NCBI GenBank assembly: GCA_964349985.1
Contig: CAYGIR010000002.1
Coordinates: forward strand, 1 to 33,235
DNA: 33,235 nt
From: an uncultured Candidatus Saccharibacteria bacterium
GTDB lineage: Bacteria; Patescibacteriota; Saccharimonadia; Saccharimonadales; CAYGIR01
Direction of reading: 5' to 3'
In this document: positions 1,199 to 28,515 of the stretch, piece by piece
Numbering within the stretch: position 1 is the first letter of the stretch
Layout: each line of letters begins with the position of its first letter
The notes under the pieces: generated by a model
The model's input: the letters and a program-made list of their open reading frames with translations, nothing else
Told to the model about the DNA's origin: nothing
The model's database searches: none
Made by a program: the position numbers and the translations under genes

Positions 1199-1674
1199 CC
1201 CTGAGAATCCTTTTTAACTACTGGTTTTTTAATCGGTGTTTTTTTAGGGGGCTTGGTGATCGGGCCTGCAGGCTTTTGTTGGGTTTTTTCAACCTGACTA
1301 ACCGGTGCCTGTTTAAGATCATCAACAAAGCTTACTCTTGCCATCTGCGCATTGTCACCACGACGTAATTTGGTTCGTTCGATCCGCAGATGACCACTGG
1401 ATCGTCCGCCAAGCAAGGGAGCAATTTCGTCAACAAGCTTATGCGCAGTCGCAACTGTTTGTAACTCGCTGATGATTTGTCGACGATTATGTAAATCACC
1501 TTTTTTGGCCTTAGTAATGAGTTTCTCTACGTAAGGGACAATTTCTTTTGCTTTAGGCAAGGTTGTTTCGATTGATTCATGCTTAATCAACGATTCGGCA
1601 AGGCTCTGCACAAGTGCTTCTCGCTGATCTCGTTCTCTGTGAAACTTTCGACCTTTATACCCATGTCTATGCAT
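1195..1674 (-). CDS. rplQ: 50S ribosomal protein L17
   Basis: 159 aa. L17 core (MHRHGYKGRKF...TTLPKAKE...) with a Lys/Pro-rich C-terminal tail. Follows rpoA as in the alpha operon. Confidence 0.96.
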   Translation of the reverse strand: MHRHGYKGRKFHRERDQREALVQSLAESLIKHESIETTLPKAKEIVPYVEKLITKAKKGDLHNRRQIISELQTVATAHKLVDEIAPLLGGRSSGHLRIERTKLRRGDNAQMARVSFVDDLKQAPVSQVEKTQQKPAGPITKPPKKTPIKKPVVKKDSQG

Positions 1675-1795
1675 AAGAGGCTCCCTTTGGGCGCGGGGTG
1701 AGAACTTGGAAGCTAGAAGTTAGAGAAGCTACTATTGCCCACTCTCTGCGCACTTCTATCTTCACACTCCTAAATTGTTCTAACAATTTAATCAT
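1667..1795 (-). CDS. intercistronic relay sORF, 42 aa (rpoA stop to rplQ start)
   Basis: ATG at 1795 shares one base with the rpoA TAA (TAATG). Hand translation gives MIKLLEQFRSVKIEVRREWAIVASLTSSFQVLTPRPKGASYA with no internal stop. TAG at 1669-1667 overlaps rplQ by 8 nt. Paralog of the sORF at 9001-9123. Confidence 0.5.
   Translation of the reverse strand: MIKLLEQFRSVKIEVRREWAIVASLTSSFQVLTPRPKGASYA
1675..1794 (-). repeat. spacer cassette copy A (paralog of 9002-9124)
   Basis: Manual alignment to 9002-9124 gives about 78 percent identity over 120 nt with no indels. Shared blocks: CACTCCTAAATTG, TAGAAGTTAG, GAAGCT, TATTGCCC. Confidence 0.85.
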
Positions 1796-2736
1796 TAGGG
1801 TTCCAGTTCCGCTAGTTTATCCTTGACTTCATCCAATGCTTTGCTTCCAAATCCCTTTAATTCGCGCAATTCGAGATCACTCAATACAAACAGGTCATTC
1901 AATCTATGGATATCGTTGTTTATTAATGCGTTGGTTGTACGAGCAGATAGATTAAGATCTTCAATAGGCGTCATGAGTTCAGTTGGTTCTTCAGCCTCAA
2001 TCGCATCAATACCACCGTCCTTCATACCAAGAGGTGCTGAGACTTCTACGCGAGTCTGTCCGGCAAGTGCAGAATACTGGTTGACCAAGATAGCAGCCGC
2101 TTCCTCAAACGCGTCACGGGGAGTAATTGAGCCATCAGTTACAACGCTTATCAACAGTTTGTCCAGATCAGTAATTTGTCCCACACGCGTACTCTCTACC
2201 TTGTATCGAACGCGCAAAACAGGCGTAAAAATAGCATCGAGCGCGACATGATCACTGGCCTTATTGGATGAGCTGGCCTCTATGCTACGATAACCACGAC
2301 CTGTCTCGACAACAATATCCATGACAAACTTAGCCTTTTCATCATCAATCGTAGCAATGATCTGGTCTGGGTTAACTACTTCAATGTCAGCGTTAGTCTG
2401 AATATCTGCAGCCGTTACAACACCCCTACCCTGACGAACAATACGTAGATTTTGGACATCATCTCCAAATACTCGGAAGCGAACGGATTTAAGATTCATC
2501 ATAATATCTACGGCATCTTCTTTGACGCCTTTAACTGTGGTAAATTCATGAGTAACGCCTTCGATCTTAAAGGAAGTTATTGCAGCTCCAGAGATAGATG
2601 ACAGCAAAACCCGTCTTAGTGAATTGCCGAGTGTCATTCCATAACCCGTATGTAACGGTTCAATCGTAAACGTGGAACTCGTATCGCTCTGGTCGTCGAC
2701 GCTCACAACTCCTGGTGTATAAATTGTTTTTGACAT
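1795..2736 (-). CDS. rpoA: DNA-directed RNA polymerase subunit alpha
   Basis: 313 aa. Alpha N-terminal domain motifs (EPLHTGYGMTLGNSLRRVLLSSI) and a C-terminal HhH domain (LNLSARTTNALINNDI). Confidence 0.97.
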   Translation of the reverse strand: MSKTIYTPGVVSVDDQSDTSSTFTIEPLHTGYGMTLGNSLRRVLLSSISGAAITSFKIEGVTHEFTTVKGVKEDAVDIMMNLKSVRFRVFGDDVQNLRIVRQGRGVVTAADIQTNADIEVVNPDQIIATIDDEKAKFVMDIVVETGRGYRSIEASSSNKASDHVALDAIFTPVLRVRYKVESTRVGQITDLDKLLISVVTDGSITPRDAFEEAAAILVNQYSALAGQTRVEVSAPLGMKDGGIDAIEAEEPTELMTPIEDLNLSARTTNALINNDIHRLNDLFVLSDLELRELKGFGSKALDEVKDKLAELEP

Positions 2737-2756: not shown

Positions 2757-3380
2757 TTAGCGCGAGTAATACTCGACAATTAATTGCTCATTGATATCTG
2801 GTTCTGCTTCTTCACGAGCCGGCAAACCGGTTATATTGATAACCAGCTTCTTTCGATCGGCTGTAAGCCAGACTGGTAGGCTGGATGGTGCGGGGCTTAC
2901 TTCATCGAGTCGTTTGAAGTACTGTGAATTTTTACTGTGATCACGGACGGTCAAATTGTCACCCGCTTGAAGGCGAATTGATGGTATATCGAATCGTCGT
3001 CCATTGAGCATGAAGTGCCCGTGCGTAACGAGCTGTCGAGCGGCTCGACGGCTAGGCGCGAGCCCGGCACGATAAACAGTGTTGTCGGCACGCTGTTCAA
3101 GTAATTGTAATAACATATCGCCTGTCTGACCTTGACGACGGGTTGCTTCCTTCATGAGATTACTAAACTGCTTTTCTAACAGCCCATAGAGCCTCTTGAC
3201 TTTTTGTTTTTCTCTTAATTGTAAGGAGTATTGGCTAGCCTTGTTACGATTGCCCCGACCAGTGTTTTTCTGACCAGGCATGGCCGTCGCGCGCTTAACC
3301 AACGCCTTGTGAGCTTTTGGATGAAGAGCGTAACCTTCGCGACGACTCATCTTAACAATAGAACCTAGGTCTCTAGCCAC
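2757..3380 (-). CDS. rpsD: 30S ribosomal protein S4
   Basis: I chose the GTG at 3380, with GGAGG 5 nt upstream, giving the canonical MARD...SRREG N-terminus (207 aa). The ORF-track ATG at 3392 would add 4 residues. Confidence 0.93.
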   Translation of the reverse strand: MARDLGSIVKMSRREGYALHPKAHKALVKRATAMPGQKNTGRGNRNKASQYSLQLREKQKVKRLYGLLEKQFSNLMKEATRRQGQTGDMLLQLLEQRADNTVYRAGLAPSRRAARQLVTHGHFMLNGRRFDIPSIRLQAGDNLTVRDHSKNSQYFKRLDEVSPAPSSLPVWLTADRKKLVINITGLPAREEAEPDINEQLIVEYYSR

Positions 3381-3447
3381 GGTAGCCTCCATCCCTATTC
3401 AACAGTAAATCACCATCTTTAGTTGTACTAGAAATAATTATGTTCAT
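3373..3447 (-). CDS. intercistronic relay sORF, 24 aa (rpsK stop to rpsD start)
   Basis: ATG lies 1 nt after the rpsK TAG (TAGTATG). AGGAGA embedded in the last rpsK codons sits 7 nt upstream. Peptide MNIIISSTTKDGDLLLNRDGGYRG. TAG overlaps rpsD by 8 nt. Confidence 0.45.
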   Translation of the reverse strand: MNIIISSTTKDGDLLLNRDGGYRG

Positions 3448-3448
3448 A

Positions 3449-3952
3449 CTATACTCTCCTAGCCTTTCGTGGACGTACGCCACCATGCGCGATACTGGTA
3501 ACATCGCAGATGCTAGCAACATGGATATCCATATTTTGCAAACTTCTGATAGCCGCTTCTCGTCCTTGGCCAATTCCTTTAACATATACATCAACCCTAC
3601 TTAACCCGTGTAACTGCTTGACGATCTGTCCTGCTTTTTCGGCAGCAATTTGTGCGGCGTAGGCTGTGCCCTTTTTGGAGCCTCTGAACCCACATGCGCC
3701 TGCACTGGAAGCGGCCAGAACTCCGCCTGAATAATCAGTAAACGTAATAATAGTGTTATTAAACGTTGCCTGGACATGCATTTGACCTGCGGGGATTGAA
3801 CGCTTAACCTTCTTCTTTTTTGCCGGTTTCGGCGCTGGAGTGCTGCTTTGGGTTGTGTCAGTTGTGTTTGCTGACACGACGTCAGTAGGAATCTCGACTT
3901 CCGTGCTGTGTTCTTGATTTGATATAGGTGATTTGGTATTAGTAGTTGTCAT
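3449..3952 (-). CDS. rpsK: 30S ribosomal protein S11
   Basis: 167 aa. S11 core (HVQATFNNTIITFTD...GSKKGTAYAAQ) preceded by a ~40 aa Thr/Ser-rich N-terminal extension. Confidence 0.95.
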   Translation of the reverse strand: MTTTNTKSPISNQEHSTEVEIPTDVVSANTTDTTQSSTPAPKPAKKKKVKRSIPAGQMHVQATFNNTIITFTDYSGGVLAASSAGACGFRGSKKGTAYAAQIAAEKAGQIVKQLHGLSRVDVYVKGIGQGREAAIRSLQNMDIHVASICDVTSIAHGGVRPRKARRV

Positions 3953-3955: not shown

Positions 3956-4342
3956 TTATGTCTTTGATGCTGATTTAGGTTGAGATCCACCAATAGCGAC
4001 TTTGCGGCCTCTACGAGTGCGGGCATTGGTCCTAGTGCGTTGTCCACGAGAGGGTAGACCAATCTTATGTCTAATGCCCCTGTAGGTATTAATATCTTTA
4101 AGTCGTTTCACATTAGTCGCCACGACTCGTTGCAACTCACCCTCAACCATATATTGATCGTTGATATGATCCTGAATACGCGAAATCTCAGCATCCGTTA
4201 AATTCTTGACACGCGTAACAACGTCTACTTTAGCCGCCGTCAATATATCGACACTGGCCTTAGGTCCAATCCCATAAATATAGGTCAGAGCAATCGCAAT
4301 CTGCTTGCTATCAGGAATAGTCACTCCAGATATTCTAGCCAC
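3956..4342 (-). CDS. rpsM: 30S ribosomal protein S13
   Basis: 128 aa. MARISGVTIP start from a GTG with GGAGG 6 nt upstream. Confidence 0.96.
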   Translation of the reverse strand: MARISGVTIPDSKQIAIALTYIYGIGPKASVDILTAAKVDVVTRVKNLTDAEISRIQDHINDQYMVEGELQRVVATNVKRLKDINTYRGIRHKIGLPSRGQRTRTNARTRRGRKVAIGGSQPKSASKT

Positions 4343-4457
4343 GAGAAACCTCCGGTTTCGTGAGTATTGAGCAAGGAGCCCAGAGCAATGAAATTACAAA
4401 ACTCCATGCTCGTTGCTCCATACTCGTTGCTCTAAAATGCTTTAGCATTTTACTCAT
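4335..4457 (-). CDS. intercistronic relay sORF, 40 aa (rpmJ stop to rpsM start)
   Basis: ATG directly abuts the rpmJ TAA (TAAATG). Peptide MSKMLKHFRATSMEQRAWSFVISLLWAPCSILTKPEVSRG. TAG overlaps rpsM by 8 nt. Confidence 0.45.
   Translation of the reverse strand: MSKMLKHFRATSMEQRAWSFVISLLWAPCSILTKPEVSRG
4402..4432 (-). repeat. 14-nt tandem duplication (two GAGCAnn-type heptamer pairs)
   Basis: Plus strand reads ctccatgctcgttg ctccatactcgttg ctc, with one mismatch between units. Confidence 0.8.
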
Positions 4458-4574: not shown

Positions 4575-4756
4575 GCGGATCATTCTCCTATAACTGCGAG
4601 TGAATGACACACTGCTTAATTTATTATAAATGTAGTCATCACATTTACGGAATGGTTCAGTGTAAACAGCAATTTAATTTCCATGGTAAACGTATTTTAT
4701 ATTACGTAACCTTGGGATCTTGAGCTTGTCTTACACTGTGCCGTTCTGTAAATGTA

Positions 4757-7267: not shown

Positions 7268-7878
7268 AGCTTGACCTCCAGCTCTGCTGATTGCACACTG
7301 CTAAGTGGCTTGGCCGTATCTTTGCTGTTGCCTTTGGCTTGCTTGCCCTTAGGCTTAACATTCGTCAACCAATTATCAGGATGCTCAATTGCCTGCATTG
7401 CAGCAAGCGTTGCATACGCTGTATTAATCTTATTCGCTGAACCTAACGATTTGGAAAGTATATTGATAATCCCGGCTACTTCTACAACCGTACGAACCAC
7501 ACCGCCAGCGATCAGCCCCGTACCTGGCACAGCTGGCTTGATAAGAATGCGCGAACCACCAACCTTTACCTCTGAATCATGGGGAATTGTTCCATTAACT
7601 ATATGTATATTTACGAAATGTTTCTTGGCTACATCAACGGCCTTGGTAACAGCACTGGTAACGTCAGCACCCTTAGCGATGCCGATCCCAACCTTGCCCT
7701 TGCGATCACCGACTACTACAAGAGCTCGAAATCTGAATCGTCGACCGCCTTTTACGACGCGTGCGACACGATCAATGTGTATGACCCGTTCATCGTATTG
7801 TTTTTCTTCCGCGGGCATATCTCTGCCACCACGTCCCTGACGATTGCCGCCCCGCTTATCTTGTCCGAATTCACTCAT
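7264..7878 (-). CDS. rpsE: 30S ribosomal protein S5
   Basis: 204 aa from the ATG at 7878, with GAAGGGAG 6 nt upstream. S5 core (VVKGGRRFRFRALVVVGD). Carries N- and C-terminal extensions. Confidence 0.95.
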   Translation of the reverse strand: MSEFGQDKRGGNRQGRGGRDMPAEEKQYDERVIHIDRVARVVKGGRRFRFRALVVVGDRKGKVGIGIAKGADVTSAVTKAVDVAKKHFVNIHIVNGTIPHDSEVKVGGSRILIKPAVPGTGLIAGGVVRTVVEVAGIINILSKSLGSANKINTAYATLAAMQAIEHPDNWLTNVKPKGKQAKGNSKDTAKPLSSVQSAELEVKL

Positions 7879-8006
7879 CAAAAACTCCCTTCGCTTGTTG
7901 CGAGACGCATTATGCCATTAACAATGTCGTATGAACCTACCAAACACACTAATGGTTTACCGAATGCAAGGCATTGTACATGCGAAATATTATAAATAGT
8001 TGTCAA
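7878..8006 (-). CDS. intercistronic relay sORF, 42 codons, TTG start (rplR stop to rpsE start)
   Basis: TTG overlaps the rplR TGA (TTGA). The frame is open across the whole spacer and its TGA shares a base with the rpsE ATG (TGATG). The non-ATG start makes this the weakest member. Confidence 0.3.
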   Translation of the reverse strand: MTTIYNISHVQCLAFGKPLVCLVGSYDIVNGIMRLATSEGSF

Positions 8007-8359
8007 AATTCAAGCCCCCCGGCCCTGGCCGCATCCGCCAATGCCTTAACTCTACCGTGATAAAGCCGACCATTGCGGTCAAACACAACCGATTTTATCT
8101 TGACGGATTTTGCCTTTTCGGCTATTTCCGAACCTACTAGTATGGCCTTTTGCGTCATTGTACCGGTAGATTTCTTATTACCAACCGAAGTCGCATAGGC
8201 AAGTGTTGTGCTATTTGAGTCATCGATAATCTGAGCTGAAACATGCGAATTGCTCACGAAGATAGTAAGCCTCGGGCGTTCACTAGTACCCAAAACCTTA
8301 GACCTTATGCGATTTTTTCGTCGTGCCAAATTTTGTACTTTTTTTTGCAAACGATTCAT
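8003..8359 (-). CDS. rplR: 50S ribosomal protein L18
   Basis: 118 aa from the ATG at 8359, with GAGGAGG 7 nt upstream (the track uses the GTG at 8362). L18 C-terminus YHGRVKALADAARAGGLEF. Confidence 0.95.
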   Translation of the reverse strand: MNRLQKKVQNLARRKNRIRSKVLGTSERPRLTIFVSNSHVSAQIIDDSNSTTLAYATSVGNKKSTGTMTQKAILVGSEIAEKAKSVKIKSVVFDRNGRLYHGRVKALADAARAGGLEF

Positions 8360-8460
8360 CACAGTTCCTCCTCGTGGGAGAATCGATAATTCAACCGTGT
8401 TAATACGGTAGACAATTCTACCTTGGATATTTTACATTCTATGCTAAATCCGATTCTCAT
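8359..8460 (-). CDS. intercistronic relay sORF, 33 aa (rplF stop to rplR start)
   Basis: ATG lies 1 nt after the rplF TAA (TAACATG), with AAGGA in the last rplF codons. Peptide MRIGFSIECKISKVELSTVLTRLNYRFSHEEEL. TGA shares a base with the rplR ATG (TGATG). Confidence 0.45.
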   Translation of the reverse strand: MRIGFSIECKISKVELSTVLTRLNYRFSHEEEL

Positions 8461-8461
8461 G

Positions 8462-9001
8462 TTATTTATCCTTACCTGACTTACCACTTTTGCGAAGAAT
8501 ACGTTCACCCACATATTTGATACCTTTACCTTTATAAGGTTCGGGCTTCTTGAGAGCACGAATTTCAGCAGCCGCCTGACCAACTTGTTGTTTGCTGATG
8601 CCACTGAGAGTAATAATATTTTGCTCAACAGATGCGCTAACGCCATCTGGAAGAGTATATGTGACTTCATGCGAAAATCCCAAATTCATTTTGAGATTCT
8701 GGCCAGCTAAAGTCACTCGGTAACCCACGCCATTAATTTCAAGTTGCTTGGTAAAACCGTTTGAAACACCAATTACCATATTACTAATTAAAGTTCGCAT
8801 GAGACCATGGCGAGAACGGTTCTCCGCTTCATCATCGAGTCTTGTAACACTAAGCTGATTGCCTTCTTGCTGTACGTTTATCCCGGGCATGGTGAACTGT
8901 TTGAGTATGCCCTTGGCGCCGGTGACTGTAATGTAATCAGGATCGATAGTGACCGTCACTCCACTCGGGACATCGATCGGTTGTTTGCCTATTCTACTCA
9001 C
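8462..9001 (-). CDS. rplF: 50S ribosomal protein L6
   Basis: 179 aa. GTG start with GAAGGGAG 7 nt upstream. MSRIGKQPIDVPSGVTV is a typical L6 N-terminus. Confidence 0.96.
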   Translation of the reverse strand: MSRIGKQPIDVPSGVTVTIDPDYITVTGAKGILKQFTMPGINVQQEGNQLSVTRLDDEAENRSRHGLMRTLISNMVIGVSNGFTKQLEINGVGYRVTLAGQNLKMNLGFSHEVTYTLPDGVSASVEQNIITLSGISKQQVGQAAAEIRALKKPEPYKGKGIKYVGERILRKSGKSGKDK

Positions 9002-9123
9002 TAAAAAGCTCCCTTCGATAGTGGAGCGAGCAGTTGGTAGTTAGAAGTTAGGGAAGCTGTTATTGCCCTCTCACTCCGCACTACTATCTCCGCACTCCTA
9101 AATTGTATTAGCAATTTATTCAT
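9001..9123 (-). CDS. intercistronic relay sORF, 40 aa (rpsH stop to rplF start)
   Basis: ATG lies 1 nt after the rpsH TAG (TAGGATG). Peptide MNKLLIQFRSAEIVVRSERAITASLTSNYQLLAPLSKGAF. TAG shares a base with the rplF GTG. Homologous to the sORF at 1667-1795. Confidence 0.5.
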   Translation of the reverse strand: MNKLLIQFRSAEIVVRSERAITASLTSNYQLLAPLSKGAF

Positions 9124-9124: not shown

Positions 9125-9526
9125 CTAATACACCTTACAAATTAACTCACCACCAAGGCGTTGTTTTTTGGCTTCCGAACCTGTCATCATACCCTTGCTG
9201 GTGCTTATAATCACAATACCACGACCTTGTTTTACGATAGGAATCTTGTCTACCGACGTATATAAACGACGGCCCGGTTTGCTTAATCGTGTTATCTCGC
9301 TAATGCGAGCATTCGTGTCAGGAGAGTGAAGTGTGAGCAAAATAGATTTTCCAATTGTCGCATCAACTATTTTCGTTTCGTCAATATAGCCAGATTTCTG
9401 CAAAAGACGAGCAACCGCCTCCTTAGTGTTTGAATGTGGCAAAATTATAGATAATTTATTAACGGCCAATCCGTTACGAATACGTGACAACATGTCAGCA
9501 ATGGGGTCTGTGGAGACTACAGACAT
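9125..9526 (-). CDS. rpsH: 30S ribosomal protein S8
   Basis: 133 aa. DPIADMLSRIRNG motif typical of S8. Confidence 0.97.
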   Translation of the reverse strand: MSVVSTDPIADMLSRIRNGLAVNKLSIILPHSNTKEAVARLLQKSGYIDETKIVDATIGKSILLTLHSPDTNARISEITRLSKPGRRLYTSVDKIPIVKQGRGIVIISTSKGMMTGSEAKKQRLGGELICKVY

Positions 9527-9636
9527 GATACGCTCCTTTCAGTAGTTGTATTGATCTGTGATTGATTAACAACGAATGCGAAGTATGTCCTCGATTCATG
9601 GCTCACGATTTGTTTGAGTAAGGTTAAATATAACAT
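9517..9636 (-). CDS. intercistronic relay sORF, 39 aa (rpsN stop to rpsH start)
   Basis: ATG lies 5 nt after the rpsN TAA. Peptide MLYLTLLKQIVSHESRTYFAFVVNQSQINTTTERSVSCL. TAG overlaps rpsH by 10 nt. No obvious SD. Confidence 0.4.
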   Translation of the reverse strand: MLYLTLLKQIVSHESRTYFAFVVNQSQINTTTERSVSCL

Positions 9637-9641: not shown

Positions 9642-9911
9642 TTACCAACTAGCCTTTGTTACGCCAGGTATCTCGCCCTTACTGGCATGTTCACGAAAAC
9701 TCAGACGCGACAATCCAAACTGTCTCATATAAGCGCGCGGTCGTCCGGTTTCACTACAGCGGTTCTTGTAACGGGTCGGAGATGAATTACGGGGAAGATT
9801 GTGCAAGCCTTCGCGATCACCCAAGCCTTTTAATTCAATACGTTTGGCGGCATACTTAGCAATCATTCGCTTACGCTTTTCATCCCTAACTACGATTGAT
9901 TTCTTAGCCAT
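9642..9911 (-). CDS. rpsN: 30S ribosomal protein S14 (long, non-zinc form)
   Basis: 89 aa from the ATG at 9911 ([20 protein letters not shown]...). The track start at 9950 is a TTG 13 codons upstream. C-terminal [11 protein letters not shown]. Confidence 0.95.
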
Positions 9912-10051
9912 TATATGGTTCCTTTCTGGTTTGCGATATTCATTGAGCAACGTTCAATTCGCCATAAATACTGAATAAAAGAATATTCCGATGTCTGAAG
10001 CGATTGATAATACGCGCATTCGTTGAGTGTTAATACACAATCCATGATCAT
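9911..10051 (-). CDS. intercistronic relay sORF, 46 aa (rplE stop to rpsN start)
   Basis: ATG abuts the rplE TAA (TAAATG), with AAGGAGA in the last rplE codons 8 nt upstream. Peptide [49 protein letters not shown] shares a base with the rpsN ATG (TAATG). Confidence 0.5.
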
Positions 10052-11402: not shown

Positions 11403-11809
11403 GACGTAACCTCATTGCCGGTGTCTGAAGACCTATCGGTGTTTTTAACCTCTGACTTTGCATTATCCGGATTCACAACCTGCTTATTCTTTGAAATACG
11501 ACCCACCGGTGCTGAAGGTGATTGAGTACCTGTCGACATAATTTCTGTTTCGGGCTCTTCGTGGCGAATTGTAGCTCGCTCTACTACCTTATCCAAGATG
11601 AATCTTTTCCGAGCTGAAATAGGACGTGTTTCAGCGATTAACACCTTATCACCAACCTTAGCAATATTTTGCTCATCGTGCGCCATAAACTTTTTACTAG
11701 TAGAGTACTGTTTTCGGTAGATCGGGTGGGTCTTGCGGGTACGAATAGTTACCACGATTGTCTTATCGCCTTTATCAGAGGTGACTACACCTGTAAATGA
11801 TTTTGCCAT
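11399..11809 (-). CDS. rpsQ: 30S ribosomal protein S17
   Basis: 136 aa. S17 core ([27 protein letters not shown]) plus a ~50 aa C-terminal tail. ATGA overlap with the rplN start. Confidence 0.95.
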
Positions 11810-11871
11810 TAGAAACTCCCTCTGTTAATTACAGATTTGAGATATTGGATGTGAGATTTTAAATAAAGCAT
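11809..11871 (-). CDS. intercistronic relay sORF, 20 aa (rpmC stop to rpsQ start)
   Basis: ATG lies 2 nt after the rpmC TGA. Peptide [23 protein letters not shown] shares a base with the rpsQ ATG (TAATG). Confidence 0.4.
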
Positions 11872-11873: not shown

Positions 11874-12077
11874 TCATAATACAGTTTCCTTAGTTAATTG
11901 TTCGGAAAGTACAGTTAATATACGAGCCAGATCCTTGCGCTTGGTCCTAAGCTGCCTAACATTAGTCATCTCACCCATGTGAACTCTACGACGCGTCTCA
12001 GCGATTTCCTCACGGAGTTTAGTACTCTCTGCCACCAATTCACTAGTCTTGATCTTACGGATTTCGGTAATTTTCAT
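11874..12077 (-). CDS. rpmC: 50S ribosomal protein L29
   Basis: 67 aa. Helical L29 pattern (LREEIAETRRRVHMGEMTNVRQLRTKRKDLARILT) at the expected position between rplP and rpsQ. Confidence 0.95.
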   Translation of the reverse strand: MKITEIRKIKTSELVAESTKLREEIAETRRRVHMGEMTNVRQLRTKRKDLARILTVLSEQLTKETVL

Positions 12078-12181
12078 AACTTACTCCCATCCTTATACAT
12101 AACAGACTCGCGTGATAATAGGCTACTACTTACATCATAATCATTGTATGTTAATTGGATTAGGCAATGTGATACTAGCAT
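12074..12181 (-). CDS. intercistronic relay sORF, 35 aa (rplP stop to rpmC start)
   Basis: ATG lies 1 nt after the rplP TAA, with AAGGAGGAGG in the last rplP codons 6 nt upstream. Peptide MLVSHCLIQLTYNDYDVSSSLLSRESVMYKDGSKL. ATGA overlap with the rpmC start. Confidence 0.5.
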   Translation of the reverse strand: MLVSHCLIQLTYNDYDVSSSLLSRESVMYKDGSKL

Positions 12182-12182: not shown

Positions 12183-12596
12183 TTACGCCTCCTCCTTGAC
12201 TAAAAACTTAGTCTTCACGGCCAGTTTATGGGCGGCCAAACGCATAGCTTCTCGTGCTGTTTCTTCTGGAACCCCCTGCATTTCAAATAAAATTGTACCG
12301 GGTCGGACCTTCGCTACGAAAAACTCTGGGTTACCCTTACCACTGCCCATTTTGACATCCTGTGGCTTTCTGGTAACAGGCGTATGTGGAAATATGCGAA
12401 TCCATATCTTGCCACCACGTTTGATATAGCGCGTCATCGCCTGGCGGGCCGATTCGATCTGACGTGAAGTTACGCGATCATGGCCTTGCGCTTGTAGAGC
12501 ATACTGCCCGAACGCGATAGCATTGCCGACCGTAGCGACACCACGTATCTTACCCTTGAACACCTTACGATGCTTTTGACGTTTCGGCATCAACAC
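12183..12596 (-). CDS. rplP: 50S ribosomal protein L16
   Basis: 137 aa from the GTG at 12596, with GGAGG 7 nt upstream, giving the canonical [11 protein letters not shown]. The ATG at 12590 is an alternative start. The track ATG at 12614 lies upstream of the SD. Confidence 0.93.
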
Positions 12597-12685
12597 GATA
12601 CAACCTCCAGCCATAATAGCAACGAAGAAGTCTTTGCTCTTTGCTCTTTGCTCATTGCTCTATGTGAAGCGTAGCGAAACTTCAT
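12590..12685 (-). CDS. intercistronic relay sORF, 31 aa (rpsC stop to rplP start)
   Basis: ATGA overlap with the rpsC stop, with AAGGAGA in the last rpsC codons 6 nt upstream. Peptide [34 protein letters not shown] shares a base with the ATG at 12590 (TGATG). Codons 11-18 are near-identical in DNA to rplX codons 1-8. Confidence 0.5.
12633..12660 (-). repeat. heptamer array (GAGCAAT GAGCAAA GAGCAAA GAGCAAA)
   Basis: Four perfect or near-perfect tandem 7-nt units read on the minus strand. Confidence 0.9.
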
Positions 12686-13314
12686 GCGGTTTCTCCTTTG
12701 TATATCCAGACTTTAATTCCTATCAAGCCTGAGCGCGGATAAGTTGCCGTACATTGATGATAGTCCACGTCTGCTCTTATGGTATGTAAGGGTACGCTAC
12801 CTTCAACTGTCTTCTCTCGTCTGGACATTTCCGCACCACCTAGCCGCCCAGAGATTTCAATACGAATACCTTTGGCGCCAGAGCGCATTGTTGCAGCGGC
12901 AGATGATTTGACCGCACGTCTAAATGCTATACGTCTTTCTAGTTGGTGCGCAATATTTTCGGCCACAAGTTTAGCAAATAATTCTGGTTTCTTGATTTCT
13001 TCGATGTTTAAGCGAGTGGGTGTCGCGTATATCTTTTCTATAAGTGCTTTAAGTTCTTGAGCGCCAACTCCACCACGACCGATCACTACTCCGGCCTTCG
13101 CTGTAGAGATTGTTACAGAAACTAGATTTGGTGAGCGTTCAATATCAACCTTGTTGATACTGCCACGGCTTCCGACCTTGCGTTGAATAACCCGTCTAAC
13201 TTCAAGATCCTGTGTTAGGAATTTTGAATAATCGCGCTTATTAGCAAACCATTTGCTCCGCCAGTCTTTGTTCACTTGCAGACGCATACTAATCGGGTTG
13301 ACTTTTTGTCCCAT
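12682..13314 (-). CDS. rpsC: 30S ribosomal protein S3
   Basis: 210 aa. MGQKVNPISMRLQVNKDWRSKWFA is the canonical S3 N-terminus, followed by a KH domain. Confidence 0.98.
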   Translation of the reverse strand: MGQKVNPISMRLQVNKDWRSKWFANKRDYSKFLTQDLEVRRVIQRKVGSRGSINKVDIERSPNLVSVTISTAKAGVVIGRGGVGAQELKALIEKIYATPTRLNIEEIKKPELFAKLVAENIAHQLERRIAFRRAVKSSAAATMRSGAKGIRIEISGRLGGAEMSRREKTVEGSVPLHTIRADVDYHQCTATYPRSGLIGIKVWIYKGETA

Positions 13315-13457
13315 CAGACAACTCCTTTGGACTTATTTAGCAGGTAGCAGGTAGCGTTTGGTAGATCGCAGACAGTGAAAGCTGAAAATCTGTTACCTGA
13401 AATCTGTAAAGTATCTGTGATCTGTGATCTGTAATCTGTAAAATAAATTTTGAACAT
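13314..13457 (-). CDS. intercistronic relay sORF, 47 aa (rplV stop to rpsC start)
   Basis: ATG lies 1 nt after the rplV TAA. Peptide MFKIYFTDYRSQITDTLQISGNRFSAFTVCDLPNATCYLLNKSKGVV. TGA shares a base with the rpsC ATG (TGATG). Contains two heptamer arrays. Confidence 0.45.
   Translation of the reverse strand: MFKIYFTDYRSQITDTLQISGNRFSAFTVCDLPNATCYLLNKSKGVV
13338..13354 (-). repeat. heptamer repeat (CTACCTG)2 plus a partial unit
   Basis: Plus strand reads tag caggtag caggtag. Confidence 0.75.
13413..13440 (-). repeat. heptamer array (TACAGAT TACAGAT CACAGAT CACAGAT)
   Basis: Four tandem 7-nt units. Degenerate extra copies lie at about 13386-13410. Confidence 0.9.
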
Positions 13458-14108: not shown

Positions 14109-14204
14109 TTACAGACTCCTTCCAGTCGCCTGAGAGTAGTGATCTAGAACCTCATTGCTCATTGCTCTCTGCTCTCTGCTCTTATGTGAAATGAAATGTA
14201 ACAT
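14109..14204 (-). CDS. intercistronic relay sORF, 31 aa (rplB stop to rpsS start)
   Basis: ATG lies 3 nt after the rplB TAA, with AGAGGA in the last rplB codons. Peptide [34 protein letters not shown] ends 1 nt before the rpsS ATG. Confidence 0.45.
14154..14181 (-). repeat. heptamer array (GAGCAGA GAGCAGA GAGCAAT GAGCAAT)
   Basis: Four tandem 7-nt units read on the minus strand. Confidence 0.9.
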
Positions 14205-14207: not shown

Positions 14208-15044
14208 TTATTTCCTCTTCGCCACATGGCGCGATTTAACAATAAACTTATTATTTGCTTTACGACTTCTAGTCTTATAACCAAGTGTCTTTTGACCCCA
14301 TGGCGTACGTGGGTCTTTGCCAATACCGTGCCTACCACCATCACCGCCACCATGTGGGTGATCCGCCGCGTTCATTACAATTCCACGTACTGTTGGTCTG
14401 ATACCTTTGTGGCGCATACGCCCTGCCTTACCAATTTTGATATTCTGATGTTGCTCATTACCAACCGTTCCGATACTAGCGGTACATTCAATGTGAACTT
14501 GTCTTACCTCACCACTAGGCAACTTAATCTGGGCATATACGCCCTCCCGTGATACCAGCTGCGCACTCGCTCCTGCGGAACGCACCATTTGCGCGCCGCT
14601 ACCAGGCGTAAGCTCAATAGCATGTATTAGACTACCGAGTGGAATACTCTTGAGCGGGAGTCGATTACCTGGTTCAATTGGTACTTCATCGCCACTTTTA
14701 ATACGTTGTCCAACAACCATACCATGCGCGGCAAGAATATAGTGGTAGGTATTGGAACTATCTTTGATTCTGGCGATGCGAGCACTTCTGTTTGGATCAT
14801 ATTCAATATGCTCAATAACAGCATCCGTACCTGCTGCTAGCTTGAAGTTCATAATTCGATAAAATTTACGAACGCCTCCACCTCGATGACGGGTTGTAAT
14901 CCTACCCATATTGTTGCGTCCAGAGTTCTTCTTTTTAATGACAACTAGGGACTTGAGGGGTTTATTTGTCGTGATTGCATCCATGTCTTGGGTGGTCATA
15001 CCACGACGGCCAGGGGTGGTTGGATTATACATACGGATACTCAT
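14208..15044 (-). CDS. rplB: 50S ribosomal protein L2
   Basis: 278 aa from the ATG at 15044 (MSIRMYNPTTPGRRG), with GGGAGGGAG 7 nt upstream. The track start at 15065 is a TTG upstream of that SD. Confidence 0.95.
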   Translation of the reverse strand: MSIRMYNPTTPGRRGMTTQDMDAITTNKPLKSLVVIKKKNSGRNNMGRITTRHRGGGVRKFYRIMNFKLAAGTDAVIEHIEYDPNRSARIARIKDSSNTYHYILAAHGMVVGQRIKSGDEVPIEPGNRLPLKSIPLGSLIHAIELTPGSGAQMVRSAGASAQLVSREGVYAQIKLPSGEVRQVHIECTASIGTVGNEQHQNIKIGKAGRMRHKGIRPTVRGIVMNAADHPHGGGDGGRHGIGKDPRTPWGQKTLGYKTRSRKANNKFIVKSRHVAKRK

Positions 15045-15151
15045 CGGGAAACTCCCTCCCGACAAATATGAAATTGGGATACTGAAATCCTAAACGAATT
15101 CAAAATTAGAAATCTGAAAAGCAAAATTGGCGATAATATGGAATTGTTCAT
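15041..15151 (-). CDS. intercistronic relay sORF, 36 aa (rplW stop to rplB start)
   Basis: ATGA overlap with the rplW stop and ATGA overlap with the rplB start. Peptide MNNSILSPILLFRFLILNSFRISVSQFHICREGVSR. Confidence 0.45.
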   Translation of the reverse strand: MNNSILSPILLFRFLILNSFRISVSQFHICREGVSR

Positions 15152-18551: not shown

Positions 18552-18581
18552 ATTATACTACAATCACACCCGTGCTGGCAA
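18552..18581 (-). promoter_or_regulatory. candidate distal promoter for rpsJ
   Basis: Minus strand TTGCCA-N18-TATAAT. It overlaps the GTG start proposed by the track for orf284. Confidence 0.4.
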
Positions 18582-20722: not shown

Positions 20723-20755
20723 GAGTTGATTGAGTGTTTTTTCCCCAATATTGAA

Positions 20756-21198: not shown

Positions 21199-23286
21199 TT
21201 ACTTGGCGTTTTTGGCGATTATCGCTTCGGCTACATTATTTGGTACATCGGAGTAGTGATCTAGCTCCATGCTTGAGCTAGCACGACCCTGAGTGCTGCT
21301 ACGCAAATTGGTTGTGTAGCCAAACATCTCACCTAGGGGTACAAAAGCAGTTATTTCTTTGATCCCTGCGGACAGATCCTCGATGGATTCAATCCTACCA
21401 CGCTTAGAGTTTAAATCACCGATAACGTCACCCATAAATGATTCAGGAGTAACGACGACTACCTTCATGATTGGCTCTAACAAAACTGGATTTGCCTGTT
21501 TAACACCAGACTGGATAGCCATAGAACCGGCTATTTTGAAGGCCATTTCGCTTGAATCAACATCGTGATAGCTACCATCGTATAACTCCGCTTTGATATC
21601 AACGACAGGATAGCCGGCTATCACGCCATTATTCAGTGCCTCAATAATACCTTGTTCGACTGGTTTAATATATTCACTCGGGACAACTCCACCCTTGATA
21701 GAGTTGATGAATTCAAAGCCTTTCCCAGCTTCGTTCTGGCTAACTCGCAACCAGACATCACCATATTGTCCGCGTCCACCAGACTGTCGAATAAATTTAC
21801 CCTGAACTTCTACGCCATCTTTGCGGATTGTTTCACGATAGGCAACCTGTGGCTGACCAATGTTCGCCTCGACACTGAACTCTCGCTTCATTCTATCAAC
21901 TAGAATTTCCAGATGCAGTTCACCCATCCCACTAATGATGGTTTGTCCGGTTTCATCATCAACTCTGATACGGAATGTCGGGTCTTCTTCTGCTAACCTT
22001 TGTAGCGCGATTCCCATCTTTTCTTGGTCAGCTTTTGTCTTTGGCTCAATAGCAATAGACACCGGTGGCTCGGGGAACGTAATACTCTCCAGAACTATTG
22101 GATTATTTAGATCACACAGGGTATGTCCGGTGGTCGTGCCTTTGAGTCCGACAATCGCCGCAATATCTCCAGCGCCAACCTCCGTGACGTCAGTCCGTTT
22201 GTCCGCCTGTAAACGAACAATCCGCCCAATGCGTTCCTTTTCACCTGTGGAACTATTTAAAACATAAGAACCAGCAGCAAGCTTGCCGGAATAAACTCTA
22301 AAATAGGCCAGTTTTCCGACAAACGGATCCGTCGTAATCTTAAACGCAAGGGCCGAAAAGGGCTGGGACTCAGCTGGTTCGCGTTCAATTTCATCACCAG
22401 TTTTGGGATGCGTACCCCAAGTACTACCTCTATCCAAAGGACTTGGCAAATAATCGTTGACCAGGTCCAAGACTTTTTCAACAATCACGCCACGTCCATC
22501 GCCACCGGTGACGACAAAGAATTTGCCAGATAGAACCGCGGTACGAATTGCTTGCTTAATATCCGCCTCAGTAAGGCCTTCCTCGCCAACTTCGAAATAT
22601 TTCTCTAGCATTGCTTCGTCTTCCGCAACGGCATTTTCTATGAGCAGAGAACGATATTTTTTGACCTGATCCATCATATCCTCAGGAATATCCGTCTCCA
22701 CCAGAGCTTTATCGGTAAAGTCTTTGTAGATAAATGCTTTCATTGCGATCAAATCAACAATACCGTTAATTGATTGCTCGAAGCCAATCGGTAGGTGTAT
22801 GGGGAAGGCTCGTTTACTAAGTCTGGCGTGAATTGTATCAAGAGATTTATAAAAATCTCCACCAGTTTGATTGATTTTGTTAATAAAGCAGATCCGAGGA
22901 ACGCCATATTTATCAGCCTGTCGCCAAACTGTTTCACTTTGCGATTCAACACCCATTTTACCGTCAAATACCACACAGGCACCGTCCAACACTCGTAATG
23001 ATCGCTCTACCTCAACCGTAAAGTCAATGTGCCCAGGGGTATCAATTATGTTAATCTGATTACCTCCCCAAAAGCAGGTAACAGAGGCAGCGACTATTGT
23101 AATCCCACGCTCTCGCTCCTGAGCCATCCAATCCGTAGTAGTTTCACCCTCGTGAACAGCCCCGATTTTGTGATTCAACCCCGTTCGATACAAAATACCT
23201 TCGGTCGTCGTAGTCTTGCCAGCATCAATATGAGCAATAATACCCAAATTACGAATGTTCTTCATCTCAATTTTTTTATCAGCCAT
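21199..23286 (-). CDS. fusA: elongation factor G
   Basis: 695 aa. AHIDAGKTT, DTPGHIDF and NKINQ motifs, with EF-G domains IV and V. Confidence 0.99.
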   Translation of the reverse strand: MADKKIEMKNIRNLGIIAHIDAGKTTTTEGILYRTGLNHKIGAVHEGETTTDWMAQERERGITIVAASVTCFWGGNQINIIDTPGHIDFTVEVERSLRVLDGACVVFDGKMGVESQSETVWRQADKYGVPRICFINKINQTGGDFYKSLDTIHARLSKRAFPIHLPIGFEQSINGIVDLIAMKAFIYKDFTDKALVETDIPEDMMDQVKKYRSLLIENAVAEDEAMLEKYFEVGEEGLTEADIKQAIRTAVLSGKFFVVTGGDGRGVIVEKVLDLVNDYLPSPLDRGSTWGTHPKTGDEIEREPAESQPFSALAFKITTDPFVGKLAYFRVYSGKLAAGSYVLNSSTGEKERIGRIVRLQADKRTDVTEVGAGDIAAIVGLKGTTTGHTLCDLNNPIVLESITFPEPPVSIAIEPKTKADQEKMGIALQRLAEEDPTFRIRVDDETGQTIISGMGELHLEILVDRMKREFSVEANIGQPQVAYRETIRKDGVEVQGKFIRQSGGRGQYGDVWLRVSQNEAGKGFEFINSIKGGVVPSEYIKPVEQGIIEALNNGVIAGYPVVDIKAELYDGSYHDVDSSEMAFKIAGSMAIQSGVKQANPVLLEPIMKVVVVTPESFMGDVIGDLNSKRGRIESIEDLSAGIKEITAFVPLGEMFGYTTNLRSSTQGRASSSMELDHYSDVPNNVAEAIIAKNAK

Positions 23287-23588
23287 TATGTCTTAATTCC
23301 TGTCAATTTGTCTCTTTTATCAAATAGCGGTCGAAGTAAGGGTTCGGGAGTGAGAAGCTCTTCAGTCCTTAGTAAAACCGATAGCGCGATCTTCCCTATC
23401 ACATGTCTAAAAATAGTGGGGTTCATTCCTATGCCTGATTCGCGCGAAGCGTCAAATAGAATTCGATCTGGGGATGGAGGAGTTTTGGGTAAGTCGAGCA
23501 CAGTATCATGTGCCGCTCCTGGAATATCCTGAATCATACGGTCGATCGTATCTGTAACGGTTCTACAAAGATCTCCTCGAAAACTCAT
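23286..23588 (-). CDS. hypothetical protein, 100 aa, wedged between rpsG and fusA
   Basis: ATG lies 2 nt after the rpsG TAA, with GAGGT 8 nt upstream. Its TAA shares a base with the fusA ATG (TAATG). 100 codons without a stop. No family recognised. Confidence 0.55.
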   Translation of the reverse strand: MSFRGDLCRTVTDTIDRMIQDIPGAAHDTVLDLPKTPPSPDRILFDASRESGIGMNPTIFRHVIGKIALSVLLRTEELLTPEPLLRPLFDKRDKLTGIKT

Positions 23589-27500: not shown

Positions 27501-28402
27501 ATCACAGGTAGCACAGAGACGCACATACTACTGGGCTTAATGCCGGCACGATGCATGCTTTCGAGCAAACGTAGTCGTTTCATAATTTTCTTCTTACGTT
27601 GCCCTTTGGATTCTTCAGCTTCCTGCGTAAGTTCCGCGATCAAATCTTCAAGCTTGATCTCAGCCAAAAGATCTTTTAGAGTAGAGCCGCCCATGCCAAC
27701 CGTGATTAGTTCTCGTAAATTATCTGGCAAGTTTCGGTAATCAGTCTCACTAATCAAATTTAGTTTTACTAAGCTAGTCAATTGAGATTTAAACGCGTCG
27801 AACTCTTCTTGGACTTCTTCCAACTCTTTAGTTTGCAACTCAGCCAAAGCCTTTAGATTCGCACTTTCCGCTTGAGCTTCGGCTTCGTATCGCGATTTGA
27901 CGGCTTCTTTTGCGGCGGCAAATTCGGCTTCTTTATCGGCTAAATACTGATCACGTTGTTTAGCGTCAACGCTTTTGATTATATAGCTAGCAAAGTATGC
28001 GATCCGCTCGAGATTTTTGACAGTCATACCTAATAGTAAACCTATAGCGCTCGGTGTTCCTCGCAAGAACCAAATATGCGCCACTGGGCTAGCAAGAGTT
28101 ATATGAGCCATACGCTCACGACGTACTATTGACTTAGTCACGATCTCACCATTTTTGTCGACAGCAGCCTCTCTTGAGCGAACGCCTTTATATTTGGCAT
28201 CGTGTGGATTAACATCTTTTACCGGGCCAAAGATTCTCTCACAAAATAATCCATCACGTTCTGGTTTTTGAGTTCTATAATTAATTGTCTCTGGTTTAGT
28301 AACTTCGCCGTAACTCCATTCCAGAATATCCTCTGGGCTGGCAACTGCAAGACGTACCGCGTCAAAATCAGCGATATCAGTCCCTGATGAATATTTTTTC
28401 AT
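24596..28402 (-). CDS. rpoC: DNA-directed RNA polymerase subunit beta prime
   Basis: 1268 aa from the ATG at 28402, with GGAGGAG 7 nt upstream. NADFDGDQMAVH catalytic motif. The track start at 28444 is a GTG 14 codons upstream of the SD. Confidence 0.98.
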   Translation of the reverse strand: MKKYSSGTDIADFDAVRLAVASPEDILEWSYGEVTKPETINYRTQKPERDGLFCERIFGPVKDVNPHDAKYKGVRSREAAVDKNGEIVTKSIVRRERMAHITLASPVAHIWFLRGTPSAIGLLLGMTVKNLERIAYFASYIIKSVDAKQRDQYLADKEAEFAAAKEAVKSRYEAEAQAESANLKALAELQTKELEEVQEEFDAFKSQLTSLVKLNLISETDYRNLPDNLRELITVGMGGSTLKDLLAEIKLEDLIAELTQEAEESKGQRKKKIMKRLRLLESMHRAGIKPSSMCVSVLPVIPPDLRPMVQLTGGRFATSDLNDLYRRVINRNNRLKKLIDLNAPEVICRNEQRMLQEAVDALIDNNNARSGRAVAATGQRRRLKSLSDMLKGKQGRFRQNLLGKRVDYSGRSVIVAGPELKMYQCGLPKTMALELFKPFVIGWLISNEYAHNIRSATRMIETGETAVWDALDDVIRGKYVLLNRAPSLHRLSIQAFQPVLIEGRAIQLHPLVCKGFNADFDGDQMAVHLPLSDAAQAEARDIMASNKNLLKPADGSPILHIEQDIVLGCYYLTYERSDNTTALKAFVSLEEAIMARDAGVISLQTHVRVPFRGEVRQTTFGRLLFNEIFPEDFEFQDEAMTKKKLTSVMAQIYQKYGQDKTAEIADDLKDIGFEWATRSGLSMGMGDFAEVKGMVKVLEDGELRATAISEQFEQGFITEEERYRLTVETWTKIDAHVQDLLAKQMEGFESSMAIAITSGARGNISQMKMSVGMLGVFSDATGRAIELPIKSGYVKGLTPLEYFTGTRGTRKALIDIALKTADAGYLTRRLVDVGQDVFTIDDDDTDPGFGMLRSDAAEIGVSYASRLQGRFVAQTLKGYLKIGEQISKEMAEKIDADANIDGVRIMSALSCTSVRGVPQKSYGVDPATGNLVVAHHPIGVIAAQSIGEPGTQLSLDSKHRSGAVVADDTAQGLSRVEELFEVRTPKGQAYLSDISGTVSAFEEGQHYVIQVTADKDEKVELPLKGRKPHIASGSEVAIGDVLAAEDDNSKPLIAPMAGKAEITAKHIIIVPSSKSLIRYEIPGFKQLYVKDGDQIVAGQRLTNGSINLHDLMRLQGVEATQRYIMNEILRIFAGQGQNIADKHLELIVRQMFSRVQIEEAGDSEFVTGDIVSKLAVVDANDNLVAANKQPAKVTQLLLGITKASLSTDSFLSAASFQDTTRVLIAAATSGKTDKLYGLKENVILGRRIPVGTGYHPTHDLDQEIRVDD

Positions 28403-28515
28403 AACTTGACTCCTCCAGTTGCGTTTGTGAATAGTATAGAACACGTAGTGAGCATAGAATGTGCTCTTTGCTCACCATCATGCGTAACTTCTTGAGACAT
28501 ACTGAAATATAACAT
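28399..28515 (-). CDS. intercistronic relay sORF, 38 aa (rpoB stop to rpoC start)
   Basis: ATG shares a base with the rpoB TAA (TAATG), with GAGGAGGA in the last rpoB codons 6 nt upstream. Peptide MLYFSMSQEVTHDGEQRAHSMLTTCSILFTNATGGVKL. ATGA overlap with the rpoC start. Confidence 0.5.
   Translation of the reverse strand: MLYFSMSQEVTHDGEQRAHSMLTTCSILFTNATGGVKL
28460..28473 (-). repeat. two-unit heptamer (GAGCAAA GAGCACA)
   Basis: Same unit family as the arrays at 11003, 12633 and 14154. Embedded in the hairpin GTGAGCA...TGCTCAC. Confidence 0.6.

Follow-up and report, generated by a model that had tools for sequence, protein, structure and literature searches.

Short Open Reading Frames Bridging Intercistronic Inserts in the Ribosomal-Protein Operons of Saccharibacteria as a Putative Translational Relay

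The window analyzed here is the whole 33,235-nt stretch of contig CAYGIR010000002.1 from an uncultured Candidatus Saccharibacteria bacterium. Its minus strand carries clpP, rpoB, rpoC, the str, S10, spc and alpha ribosomal-protein clusters, and rplM-rpsI, and the nearest public loci are all metagenome-assembled genomes (MAGs) of Candidatus Saccharibacteria/Saccharimonadales. At 15 junctions between these cistrons, the spacer is filled by one short open reading frame (sORF), which begins at the stop codon of the upstream gene and ends at the start codon of the downstream gene. A preliminary description of the window had listed these sORFs and proposed that one phased frame per spacer is maintained to relay translation from cistron to cistron. 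This proposal is supported at the sequence level by shuffled spacers and by about 100 clusters of similar spacers in related genomes, and the spacers themselves appear to be lineage-specific insertions of repeated elements.

The Window and Its Bridging Frames

The gene starts of the window were curated by N-terminal homology and the position of the Shine-Dalgarno (SD) sequence (rplP, rpsN, rpsD, rplV, secY, infA, rpmJ, and others), and the gene boundaries assumed in the preliminary description match them. All 15 sORFs were recovered on the minus strand (Table 1) with a start codon (14 ATG and one TTG), a length divisible by three, no internal stop, and the peptide length originally given. Measured from the curated genes, the start of each sORF falls between -4 and +5 nt relative to where the upstream stop codon ends, and the base after its own stop lies at -1 to +10 nt relative to the first base of the downstream start. 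The remaining junctions within the units either overlap or measure at most 23 nt. Ahead of 13 of the 15 sORF starts, the end of the upstream gene contains an SD match of 4 nt or more, in agreement with the preliminary description. The supposed tandem pair of sORFs in the rplO>secY spacer ends about 60 nt before secY, leaving no clean relay at that junction.

Bridging is far more frequent than chance would predict. Among the 23 window spacers of 30-300 nt, 15 are bridged, whereas 2000 dinucleotide-preserving shuffles per spacer, a check that the preliminary description itself had called for, gave a mean of 1.27 bridged spacers (sd 1.05, max 6); the Poisson-binomial probability of at least 15 bridged spacers out of 23 is 5e-18. 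The compositional argument offered at first needs correction, as the sequence had been taken as strongly AT-rich with a stop about every 15-20 codons per frame, whereas the measured GC content is 43-46% and the off-frame stop density is about one per 13-15 codons.

The 303-nt rpsG>fusA gap is filled by a longer frame, orf100, which looks like a 16th relay. This frame was open in shuffles with P = 0.004, and the other frames contain eight stops each. No homologue of orf100 was found beyond this species, and its six single-nucleotide polymorphisms (SNPs) among strains are all non-synonymous. Repeats of 7 nt of the GAGCAAA type are common to four window spacers, the 7-8-nt periodicity of such repeats throughout this study being judged by inspection.

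Promoter-like sequences are distributed differently. The best matches on the coding strand fall in or beside untiled spacers (secY>infA and upstream of rpsJ, 11/12 each; orf95>rplC, 10/12; rpoC>rpsL and orf139>tuf, 9/12 each), and scans with promoter and terminator consensus sequences revealed no enrichment. Several window spacers open with a TGnTAnnnT-like string. The idea that ATGTTATATTT-like 5′ ends are extended -10 promoters was rejected, the strong promoter-like matches being located elsewhere than in tiled spacers. A search of the whole window with Rfam (gathering thresholds) and a tRNA scan gave no matches.

Table 1. Bridging open reading frames of the window, by descending position
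Feature	Position	Strand	Size	Remarks
rpoB>rpoC sORF	28399..28515	-	38 aa	TAATG start overlap and ATGA stop/start overlap; small GAGCA-type hairpin, fold z -2.2; SD 6 nt
orf100, rpsG>fusA gap	23286..23588	-	100 codons	Candidate long relay; starts 2 nt past rpsG stop; TAA overlaps fusA ATG
rplW>rplB sORF	15041..15151	-	36 aa	ATGA at both ends; median spacer of this junction -1 nt in 66 other species
rplB>rpsS sORF	14109..14204	-	31 aa	7-nt repeats GAGCAGA/GAGCAAT
rplV>rpsC sORF	13314..13457	-	47 aa	Element family 0 (CAGATNA repeats), common to 10 other genomes
rpsC>rplP sORF	12590..12685	-	31 aa	GAGCAAA 7-nt repeats, 3′ arm truncated
rplP>rpmC sORF	12074..12181	-	35 aa	SD 7 nt; gene-called in independent assemblies
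rpmC>rpsQ sORF	11809..11871	-	20 aa	TAATG stop/start overlap; alternative in-frame ATG at 11877 overlaps rpmC stop as ATGA
rplE>rpsN sORF	9911..10051	-	46 aa	TAATG stop/start overlap
rpsN>rpsH sORF	9517..9636	-	39 aa	Stop 10 nt within rpsH
rpsH>rplF sORF	9001..9123	-	40 aa	D1 repeat; paralogous to rpoA>rplQ spacer (79% identity, ungapped)
rplF>rplR sORF	8359..8460	-	33 aa	Hairpin still present, z -2.5
rplR>rpsE sORF	7878..8006	-	42 codons	TTG start in TTGA; TGATG stop/start overlap
rpmJ>rpsM sORF	4335..4457	-	40 aa	Best-kept hairpin of the window, GAGCAAC-type repeats, z -5.2
rpsK>rpsD sORF	3373..3447	-	24 aa	Stop 8 nt within rpsD (GTG start)
rpoA>rplQ sORF	1667..1795	-	42 aa	Second copy of the D1 repeat

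Spacers as Inserted Repeats in Related Genomes

The window was compared with 160 loci of Saccharibacteria, comprising 80 genome loci of species representatives and 80 metagenome loci, with about 10 kb on each side of the matched gene covered per related genome. Genes in these loci were called by tblastn with an SD-aware choice of start, and nearly all of the starts coincide with their projected positions. Artefacts of gene calling or frameshifts (four in locus L080 and one each in L043 and L017) were dropped from the set of long spacers. Among the 80 genome loci, the junction types that are tiled in the window are usually tight, their median spacer lengths ranging from -1 to +18 nt. The empty site has the form ...AAGGAGnnnAAA TAATG Gcn..., in which stop and start overlap and the SD sequence lies within the last codons of the upstream gene. 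At filled sites, the ATG of the sORF and its SD sequence occupy the position held by the start and SD sequence of the downstream gene in species with an empty junction. At least one long spacer at a normally tight junction is present in 34 of the 80 genomes, a minority, and colonization is heaviest in L147 (17 long spacers), the window and L029 (15 each), and L019 and L031 (12 each).

The long spacers are repeated sequences. Within one genome, identity between spacers at different junctions is as high as 97-99% along the entire length, and one family can occupy different junctions in different genomes. The 208 long spacers fall into 106 sequence clusters. The largest has 29 members in 11 genomes at 13 junction types and includes the rplV>rpsC spacer of the window (family 0), and the second-largest has 22 members in 17 genomes at 12 junction types. 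High-scoring segment pairs between copies were on the same strand in 1002 cases and on opposite strands in none, showing that all copies are oriented with the genes, and every catalogued copy sits at a junction of co-directional genes. Inserts are about 60-170 nt long. A well-preserved copy consists of a 5′ arm of tandem 7-8-nt repeats, a loop, a complementary 3′ arm, a new SD sequence, and a TAATG formed with the downstream start. TAATG or TA is present at both ends of the element and is possibly part of the copied unit.

Across species, the tiled window spacers are not conserved in sequence, in contrast to the untiled, constitutively long ones. No relatives of 85-99% identity in which the orthologous window spacers could be followed were found, the nearest other species being 75-80% identical in L5 and lacking the inserts. 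Look-ups with exact window proteins returned solely strains of at least 99.5% identity, and a search among all loci for orthologous element pairs of 90-99.9% identity found none. From these sequence comparisons, the long spacers are best read as lineage-specific insertions of repeated elements into stop/start junctions that ancestrally overlapped.

Predicted hairpins are common outside the window, where the median fold z-score of the copies is -2.0 and 51% fall below -2. Within the window, three of the 15 copies still fold significantly (rpmJ>rpsM, -5.2; rplF>rplR, -2.5; rpoB>rpoC, -2.2). Most window copies have lost the hairpin and recognizable family membership, while the relay frame is kept in all.

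A profile search with family-0 peptides revealed further copies at non-ribosomal junctions on a 961-kb contig (JGI Ga0500616_0000005; L177-L179), namely between an ABC ATPase and a permease, between the N- and C-subunits of transketolase, and between a hypothetical gene and a metallo-hydrolase. A different element occupies the GAPDH>RpiB junction of the same contig, and each of these non-ribosomal elements overlaps both neighboring genes. Because copies are found at such junctions, relay inserts are not specific to ribosomal-protein operons. Two copies on this contig, at 283 kb on the minus strand and 320 kb on the plus strand, each follow the strand of their gene, which may point to an orientation linked to transcription rather than replication.

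Maintenance of the Frame and Competing Explanations

The relatives also allow the bridging frame to be followed across independent insertions; here a spacer was counted as bridged when its sORF ends at -10 to +12 nt from the downstream start. In the 80 genome loci, tight-type junctions have 134 spacers of 40 nt or longer, of which 110 are bridged versus about 5 expected, whereas the constitutively long spacers (orf95>rplC, rplO>secY, secY>infA, and infA>rpmJ) are bridged in 4 of 188 cases versus about 6 expected. The 80 metagenome loci give the same contrast, with 50/64 tight-type spacers (2.8 expected) and 2/68 constitutively long spacers (2.9 expected). After removal of artefacts, 140 of 151 inserts are bridged (93%), including 88% of singletons, and the bridging rate is independent of hairpin strength and family size.

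In the 125 bridged elements, the sORF frame contains no stop in 5712 codons. The two alternative frames have stop densities of 0.077 and 0.065 per codon and are open in three and five elements, respectively. The sORF start is ATG in 120 of the 125 and lies at -1 or -4 from the upstream stop in 82, and the sORF stop overlaps the next start in 92 (TAATG type in 74 and ATGA in 18). An SD sequence of at least 4 nt precedes 88% of the sORF starts, as opposed to 18% of random positions. The preliminary description had suggested that related genomes should preserve frame and junction geometry while the sequence drifts, with indels in multiples of three. Frame and geometry are indeed preserved across the roughly 100 clusters, whereas the lengths differ by non-multiples of three.

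The rpsH>rplF junction serves as a natural control. Its ancestral spacer is about 18 nt and non-overlapping; inserts there have strong hairpins (median z -2.8), only 9 of 31 are bridged, and several carry an in-frame TAA within the repeat unit, implying that the frame is kept where the junction was formerly coupled. At this same junction, L019, L025, L053, L057, and L099 share an orthologous hairpin family of the GTATGAA type (z about -4.5) with no bridging frame.

A relay of the following kind would account for these features. The ATG of the element abuts or overlaps the upstream stop and would use the SD sequence in the end of the upstream gene, so that ribosomes finishing that gene, or binding its terminal SD sequence, could translate the insert as a throw-away sORF and terminate directly at the next start codon. 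Coupling of the downstream cistron would then be maintained through termination-reinitiation, through unfolding of its ribosome-binding site, or both, which would make an insertion tolerable in essential, stoichiometric operons. Coupling by reinitiation is lost once the distance from stop to start reaches about 20 nt (PMC10666635); therefore, a TAATG junction interrupted by 100 nt of untranslated insert should leave the downstream cistron uncoupled. An ATG placed on the old stop/start, an open frame, and a stop placed on the new start would restore two chained overlap junctions. The benefit may consist of ribosome hand-over, unwinding of structure, protection against Rho or RNases, or several of these together. 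The sequences directly show repeated spacers, empty and filled sites, the junction geometry, frame-specific openness, and, between species, a lack of peptide constraint; from them we infer the translation of the sORFs and the hand-over, as well as the mode of mobility and any function of the hairpin. Overall, junction-inserting mobile elements that carry a translational relay are probably the best explanation of the data.

The peptide itself appears to be unconstrained between species. Differences are spread evenly over the three codon positions, both in pairs from the same junction (545/618/553) and in pairs from different junctions (3513/3591/3581), and the two D1 copies of the window differ at 8/8/8. 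Among family members, 5-34% of the aligned columns are read in different phases, and every copy is nevertheless open. When the D1 peptide of the window was compared with 5.8 billion proteins, it matched itself alone. The situation within the species is different. Among strains of at least 99.5% identity (contigs L081-L086 and L167-L176), 14 of 20 SNPs in the sORFs fall at codon position 3; 12 are synonymous and eight non-synonymous, with no stops and no indels, whereas 22% synonymous changes would be expected (P = 3e-4). The corresponding counts by codon position in real genes are 7/4/70. SNP rates are 12.4/kb in the sORF spacers, 3.1/kb in genes, and 0.9/kb in constitutive spacers. The strain pattern is compatible with translation of the sORFs. 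The early suggestion that the peptides may be irrelevant thus holds between species, where codon positions are uniform and phases shift, and is not fully settled in this lineage, where the SNPs are coding-like.

Several observations weigh against the relay-carrying mobile element. Only three of the 15 window spacers are tied by sequence to a multi-copy repeat family (D1 twice and family 0 once), and for the others a mobile origin is suggested by analogy and by partial 7-nt repeats. In L019, the similarity of three copies extends into the last ~13 nt of their three different upstream genes, suggesting recombination or gene conversion between similar junction motifs rather than classical transposition. 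The predicted fold is stronger on the antisense strand in 116 copies and on the sense strand in 63, with a mean advantage of 2.5 kcal/mol for the antisense strand; accordingly, the palindrome does not look tuned for mRNA, and it may be a DNA-level feature tied to mobility. The coding-like SNPs within the species conflict with a purely throw-away peptide. Finally, 99% of the downstream genes at filled sites have their own SD sequence of at least 4 nt, so that independent initiation is possible and the need for hand-over is argued from the pattern of conservation alone.

This last point bears directly on the rival that survives best, in which the sORFs are translated and the benefit lies in blocking Rho-dependent polarity, RNase attack, or a stalled hairpin, while the downstream gene starts from its own SD sequence. 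The preliminary description had already raised such protection. Unwinding by passing ribosomes could also matter, given that the predicted pairing is 0.57 for the downstream SD sequence and 0.60 for the element body; as a means of discriminating between coupling mechanisms, the same comparison was uninformative and was set aside. Protection would not require the sORF stop to lie on the next start, yet the TAATG and ATGA overlaps counted above predominate, and the 5′ end is likewise shaped as an overlap in 82 of the 125 elements. We therefore regard this rival as unlikely, though worth keeping in mind.

It is less probable still that the frame was built into master copies or filtered at insertion only, and has since been inherited without selection still acting on the individual sites. 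The frames of young families, whose copies are 90-99% identical, are not independent events, and the start and stop modules belong to the copied unit. Such inheritance fits poorly with the singletons and eroded copies, which are bridged in 88% of cases with no drop as the hairpin decays, with within-family indels that are not multiples of three and change the phase while the copies remain open, and with the window, where all 15 frames are intact even though most copies are eroded and fast-evolving.

The sORFs could instead encode functional micro-proteins, for which the strain SNPs and the annotation of several sORFs by gene callers might be cited. The uniform substitutions between species and paralogues, the different phases of homologous copies, the likeness of about 100 unrelated clusters in geometry only, and the absence of a homologue of the window peptide outside the species in the protein search described above make this highly improbable. 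There is slightly less to be said for the spacers as regulatory RNA or DNA (internal promoters, 5′ leaders, processing or stability hairpins, or autoregulatory sites of ribosomal proteins) in which the frames are incidental, a reading we consider very improbable. It could draw on the TGnTAnnnT-like string, on the long hairpins of many non-window copies, and on the effect of REP-, ERIC-, and Correia-type repeats on mRNA stability (PMC3184786). Against it stand the promoter-like matches, which are not enriched and of which the strong ones fall in untiled spacers, the lack of Rfam matches, the conservation of untiled rather than tiled spacers across species, and the loss of the hairpin in 12 of the 15 window copies, in which the frames persist. 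Moreover, an incidental frame cannot explain zero stops in one frame versus about 0.07 per codon elsewhere. A chance or compositional artefact, conceivable insofar as purine-rich SD regions and repeat arms can be stop-poor, is refuted by the shuffles in the window and in relatives, by normal off-frame stop densities, and by constitutively long spacers that are bridged at the chance level.

Returning to the relay-carrying mobile elements, a broader generalization may be offered tentatively, with confidence somewhat short of even. Saccharibacteria may carry a diverse superfamily of junction-specific mobile coupling cassettes, composed of a start on a stop, a repeat hairpin, an SD sequence, and a stop on a start, which colonize coupled operon junctions throughout the genome, owe their open frame to selection that outlasts the decay of the hairpin by far, and are sometimes fused in frame to neighboring genes.

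Protein Extensions, Neighboring Features, and Known Systems

Several ribosomal proteins of the window carry terminal extensions relative to the median of the 80 related species: RpsJ (17903-18394; 163 vs 110 aa), RpsQ (11399-11809; 136 vs 104 aa), RpsK (3449-3952; 167 vs 134 aa), and RplM (704-1198; 164 vs 146 aa). In rplX (10682-11032), the N-terminus MSKEQRAKS is encoded by GAGCAAA repeats that are also present in three spacers. These extensions may be repeat inserts that have been absorbed into the proteins. If so, in-frame fusion of cassettes could supply lineage-specific N- and C-terminal extensions of ribosomal proteins, providing a possible route from selfish repeats to terminal extensions of essential proteins.

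The inserts also amount to a natural coupling experiment, in that hundreds of independent insertions into stop/start overlaps would survive almost only if the ribosome can cross them. Together with the contrast offered by frame-less inserts at an uncoupled junction and by always-long spacers, they provide comparative evidence for strong selection on translational coupling in ribosomal-protein operons and other operons encoding subunits. One consequence for annotation is that relay frames of repeats probably account for dozens of the 30-60-aa "hypothetical proteins" recorded in Saccharibacteria MAGs. The elements may also be viewed as a compact natural cassette for insulated coupling, akin to synthetic bicistronic designs.

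Other features of the window are as follows. A perfect 55-nt direct repeat (33000-33054 and 33181-33235, 181 nt apart) lies upstream of clpP, its second copy reaching the window end. Positions 33020-33031 (12 nt) are deleted in one strain assembly, and the pair could be a true tandem feature or an effect of the assembly end. The fusA-tuf region is hypervariable (38 SNP/kb among strains) and contains orf139 (20756-21175, minus strand) opposite a 147-aa ORF (20726-21169, plus strand), with gene callers differing in the strand assigned. The preliminary description had taken orf139 as a minus-strand protein, which is probably incorrect; its SNPs are distributed over codon positions without a signature (5/7/4) and one strain has a stop in the frame. 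A 284-aa ORF (18572-19426, plus strand; 252 aa as called in assemblies) lies in the tuf-rpsJ interval, on the strand opposite to these genes. Between rpsJ and rplC are a NUDIX hydrolase gene (17348-17824) and orf95 (16970-17257), for which tblastn found counterparts in 4/80 and 39/80 related loci, respectively, and the orf95>rplC spacer is conserved with a promoter-like TTGACA-16-GATACT. Pfam gave no match for orf100, orf139, orf95, or the plus-strand ORF at 18572-19426. The untiled infA>rpmJ spacer (4575-4756) is strongly structured (z -4.1 sense and -6.2 antisense), has no Rfam match, and is conserved over its 3′ 50-60 nt in many Saccharibacteria, making it a candidate conserved leader or regulatory RNA of rpmJ.

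Among known repeats, several classes share single features with the Saccharibacteria inserts. Elements such as REP, ERIC, Correia, and BOX, and others resembling miniature inverted-repeat transposable elements (MITEs), are likewise small and non-autonomous, have inverted-repeat arms, and are often cotranscribed in operons; REP2 of Neisseria carries a ribosome-binding site and ATG, and some such repeats have ORFs fused to neighboring genes (PMC3184786, PMC2229807). By the descriptions in these two papers, no such family has an ORF adjoining the upstream stop at one end and the downstream start at the other. With regard to the hallmarks of MITEs, empty and filled sites are clearly distinguishable in Saccharibacteria, complementary repeat arms are visible, and a fold z-score below -2 is reached by 51% of non-window and 3 of 15 window copies. 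No clear target-site duplication was identified, nor was a transposase partner, for which about 10 kb on each side of the matched gene was available per related genome.

Cyanobacterial STRR heptanucleotide repeats, reportedly described by Mazel et al. in 1990, resemble the inserts in having tandem 7-nt units at intergenic positions in operons. Their sequences are unrelated to the Saccharibacteria inserts, and we know of no relay ORF described for STRRs.

Rickettsia palindromic elements (RPEs; Ogata et al. 2000, cited in PMC3184786), so far as the citing account goes, lie in frame within protein-coding genes and add peptide segments. They are similar in being palindromic mobile repeats of ~100-150 bp tolerated in translated sequence because the frame is kept. 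The Saccharibacteria element differs in usually being a separate cistron, as in the 15 window elements, each of which has a start and a stop of its own. In L031, the C-terminus of rpsQ is extended by an element fused to it in frame, and such in-frame fusions seem to be a minority outcome.

On the side of coupling, termination-reinitiation has been described for overlapping gene pairs (Huber et al. 2019, PMC6728339; 2023, PMC10666635), which have the same ATGA and TAATG/TGATG overlaps with the SD sequence inside the upstream ORF. The difference here is that the insert brings a dispensable ORF by which two such junctions are linked in series. In bicistronic designs and "delivery" upstream ORFs, as far as they are outlined in PMC12548453, a short leader ORF ending on the target start delivers ribosomes and removes problems of structure; these are engineered or 5′-leader ORFs, in contrast to natural inserts between two cistrons. 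No paper connecting translational coupling or MITE-type repeats, in the sense of relay inserts, with Saccharibacteria or Patescibacteria was found in full-text literature searches.

The closest counterparts are the MIRUs (mycobacterial interspersed repetitive units), which, in the parts of the literature consulted, are short dispersed intercistronic operon repeats oriented with the genes, with a small ORF overlapping the neighboring genes at both ends (Supply et al. 1997, via PMC3184786 and PMC12548453), and which are interpreted there as mobile elements that insert at start codons and are harmless through translational coupling. The Saccharibacteria inserts are likewise short, recur many times in a genome (a 20-kb locus can have up to 17 long spacers), lie between cistrons in the orientation of the genes, and have an internal ORF that abuts the flanking stop and start (15/15 in the window). 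Within the window itself, repetition is evident for the D1 pair and the shared 7-nt repeats only. They differ in their host phylum, which is Saccharibacteria of the candidate phyla radiation (CPR) rather than Actinomycetota, and probably in base composition. MIRUs occur in tandem variable-number tandem repeat (VNTR) arrays, whereas the Saccharibacteria elements are single units, and whole units in tandem were seen neither in the window nor in the inspected related loci. Further differences are the arms of 7-8-nt tandem repeats that form a long hairpin, the many unrelated sequence families, the coupling mostly of the -1 (TAATG) type at both ends, and the very high density in ribosomal-protein operons (15-17 inserts per cluster in some genomes). 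The inserts may thus be said to work like MIRUs without being classified as MIRUs, a likeness drawn from description rather than sequence. They would accordingly belong to a known kind, the MIRU-like repeats of coupled junctions, and what is new is their occurrence, with features of their own, in the candidate phylum Saccharibacteria.

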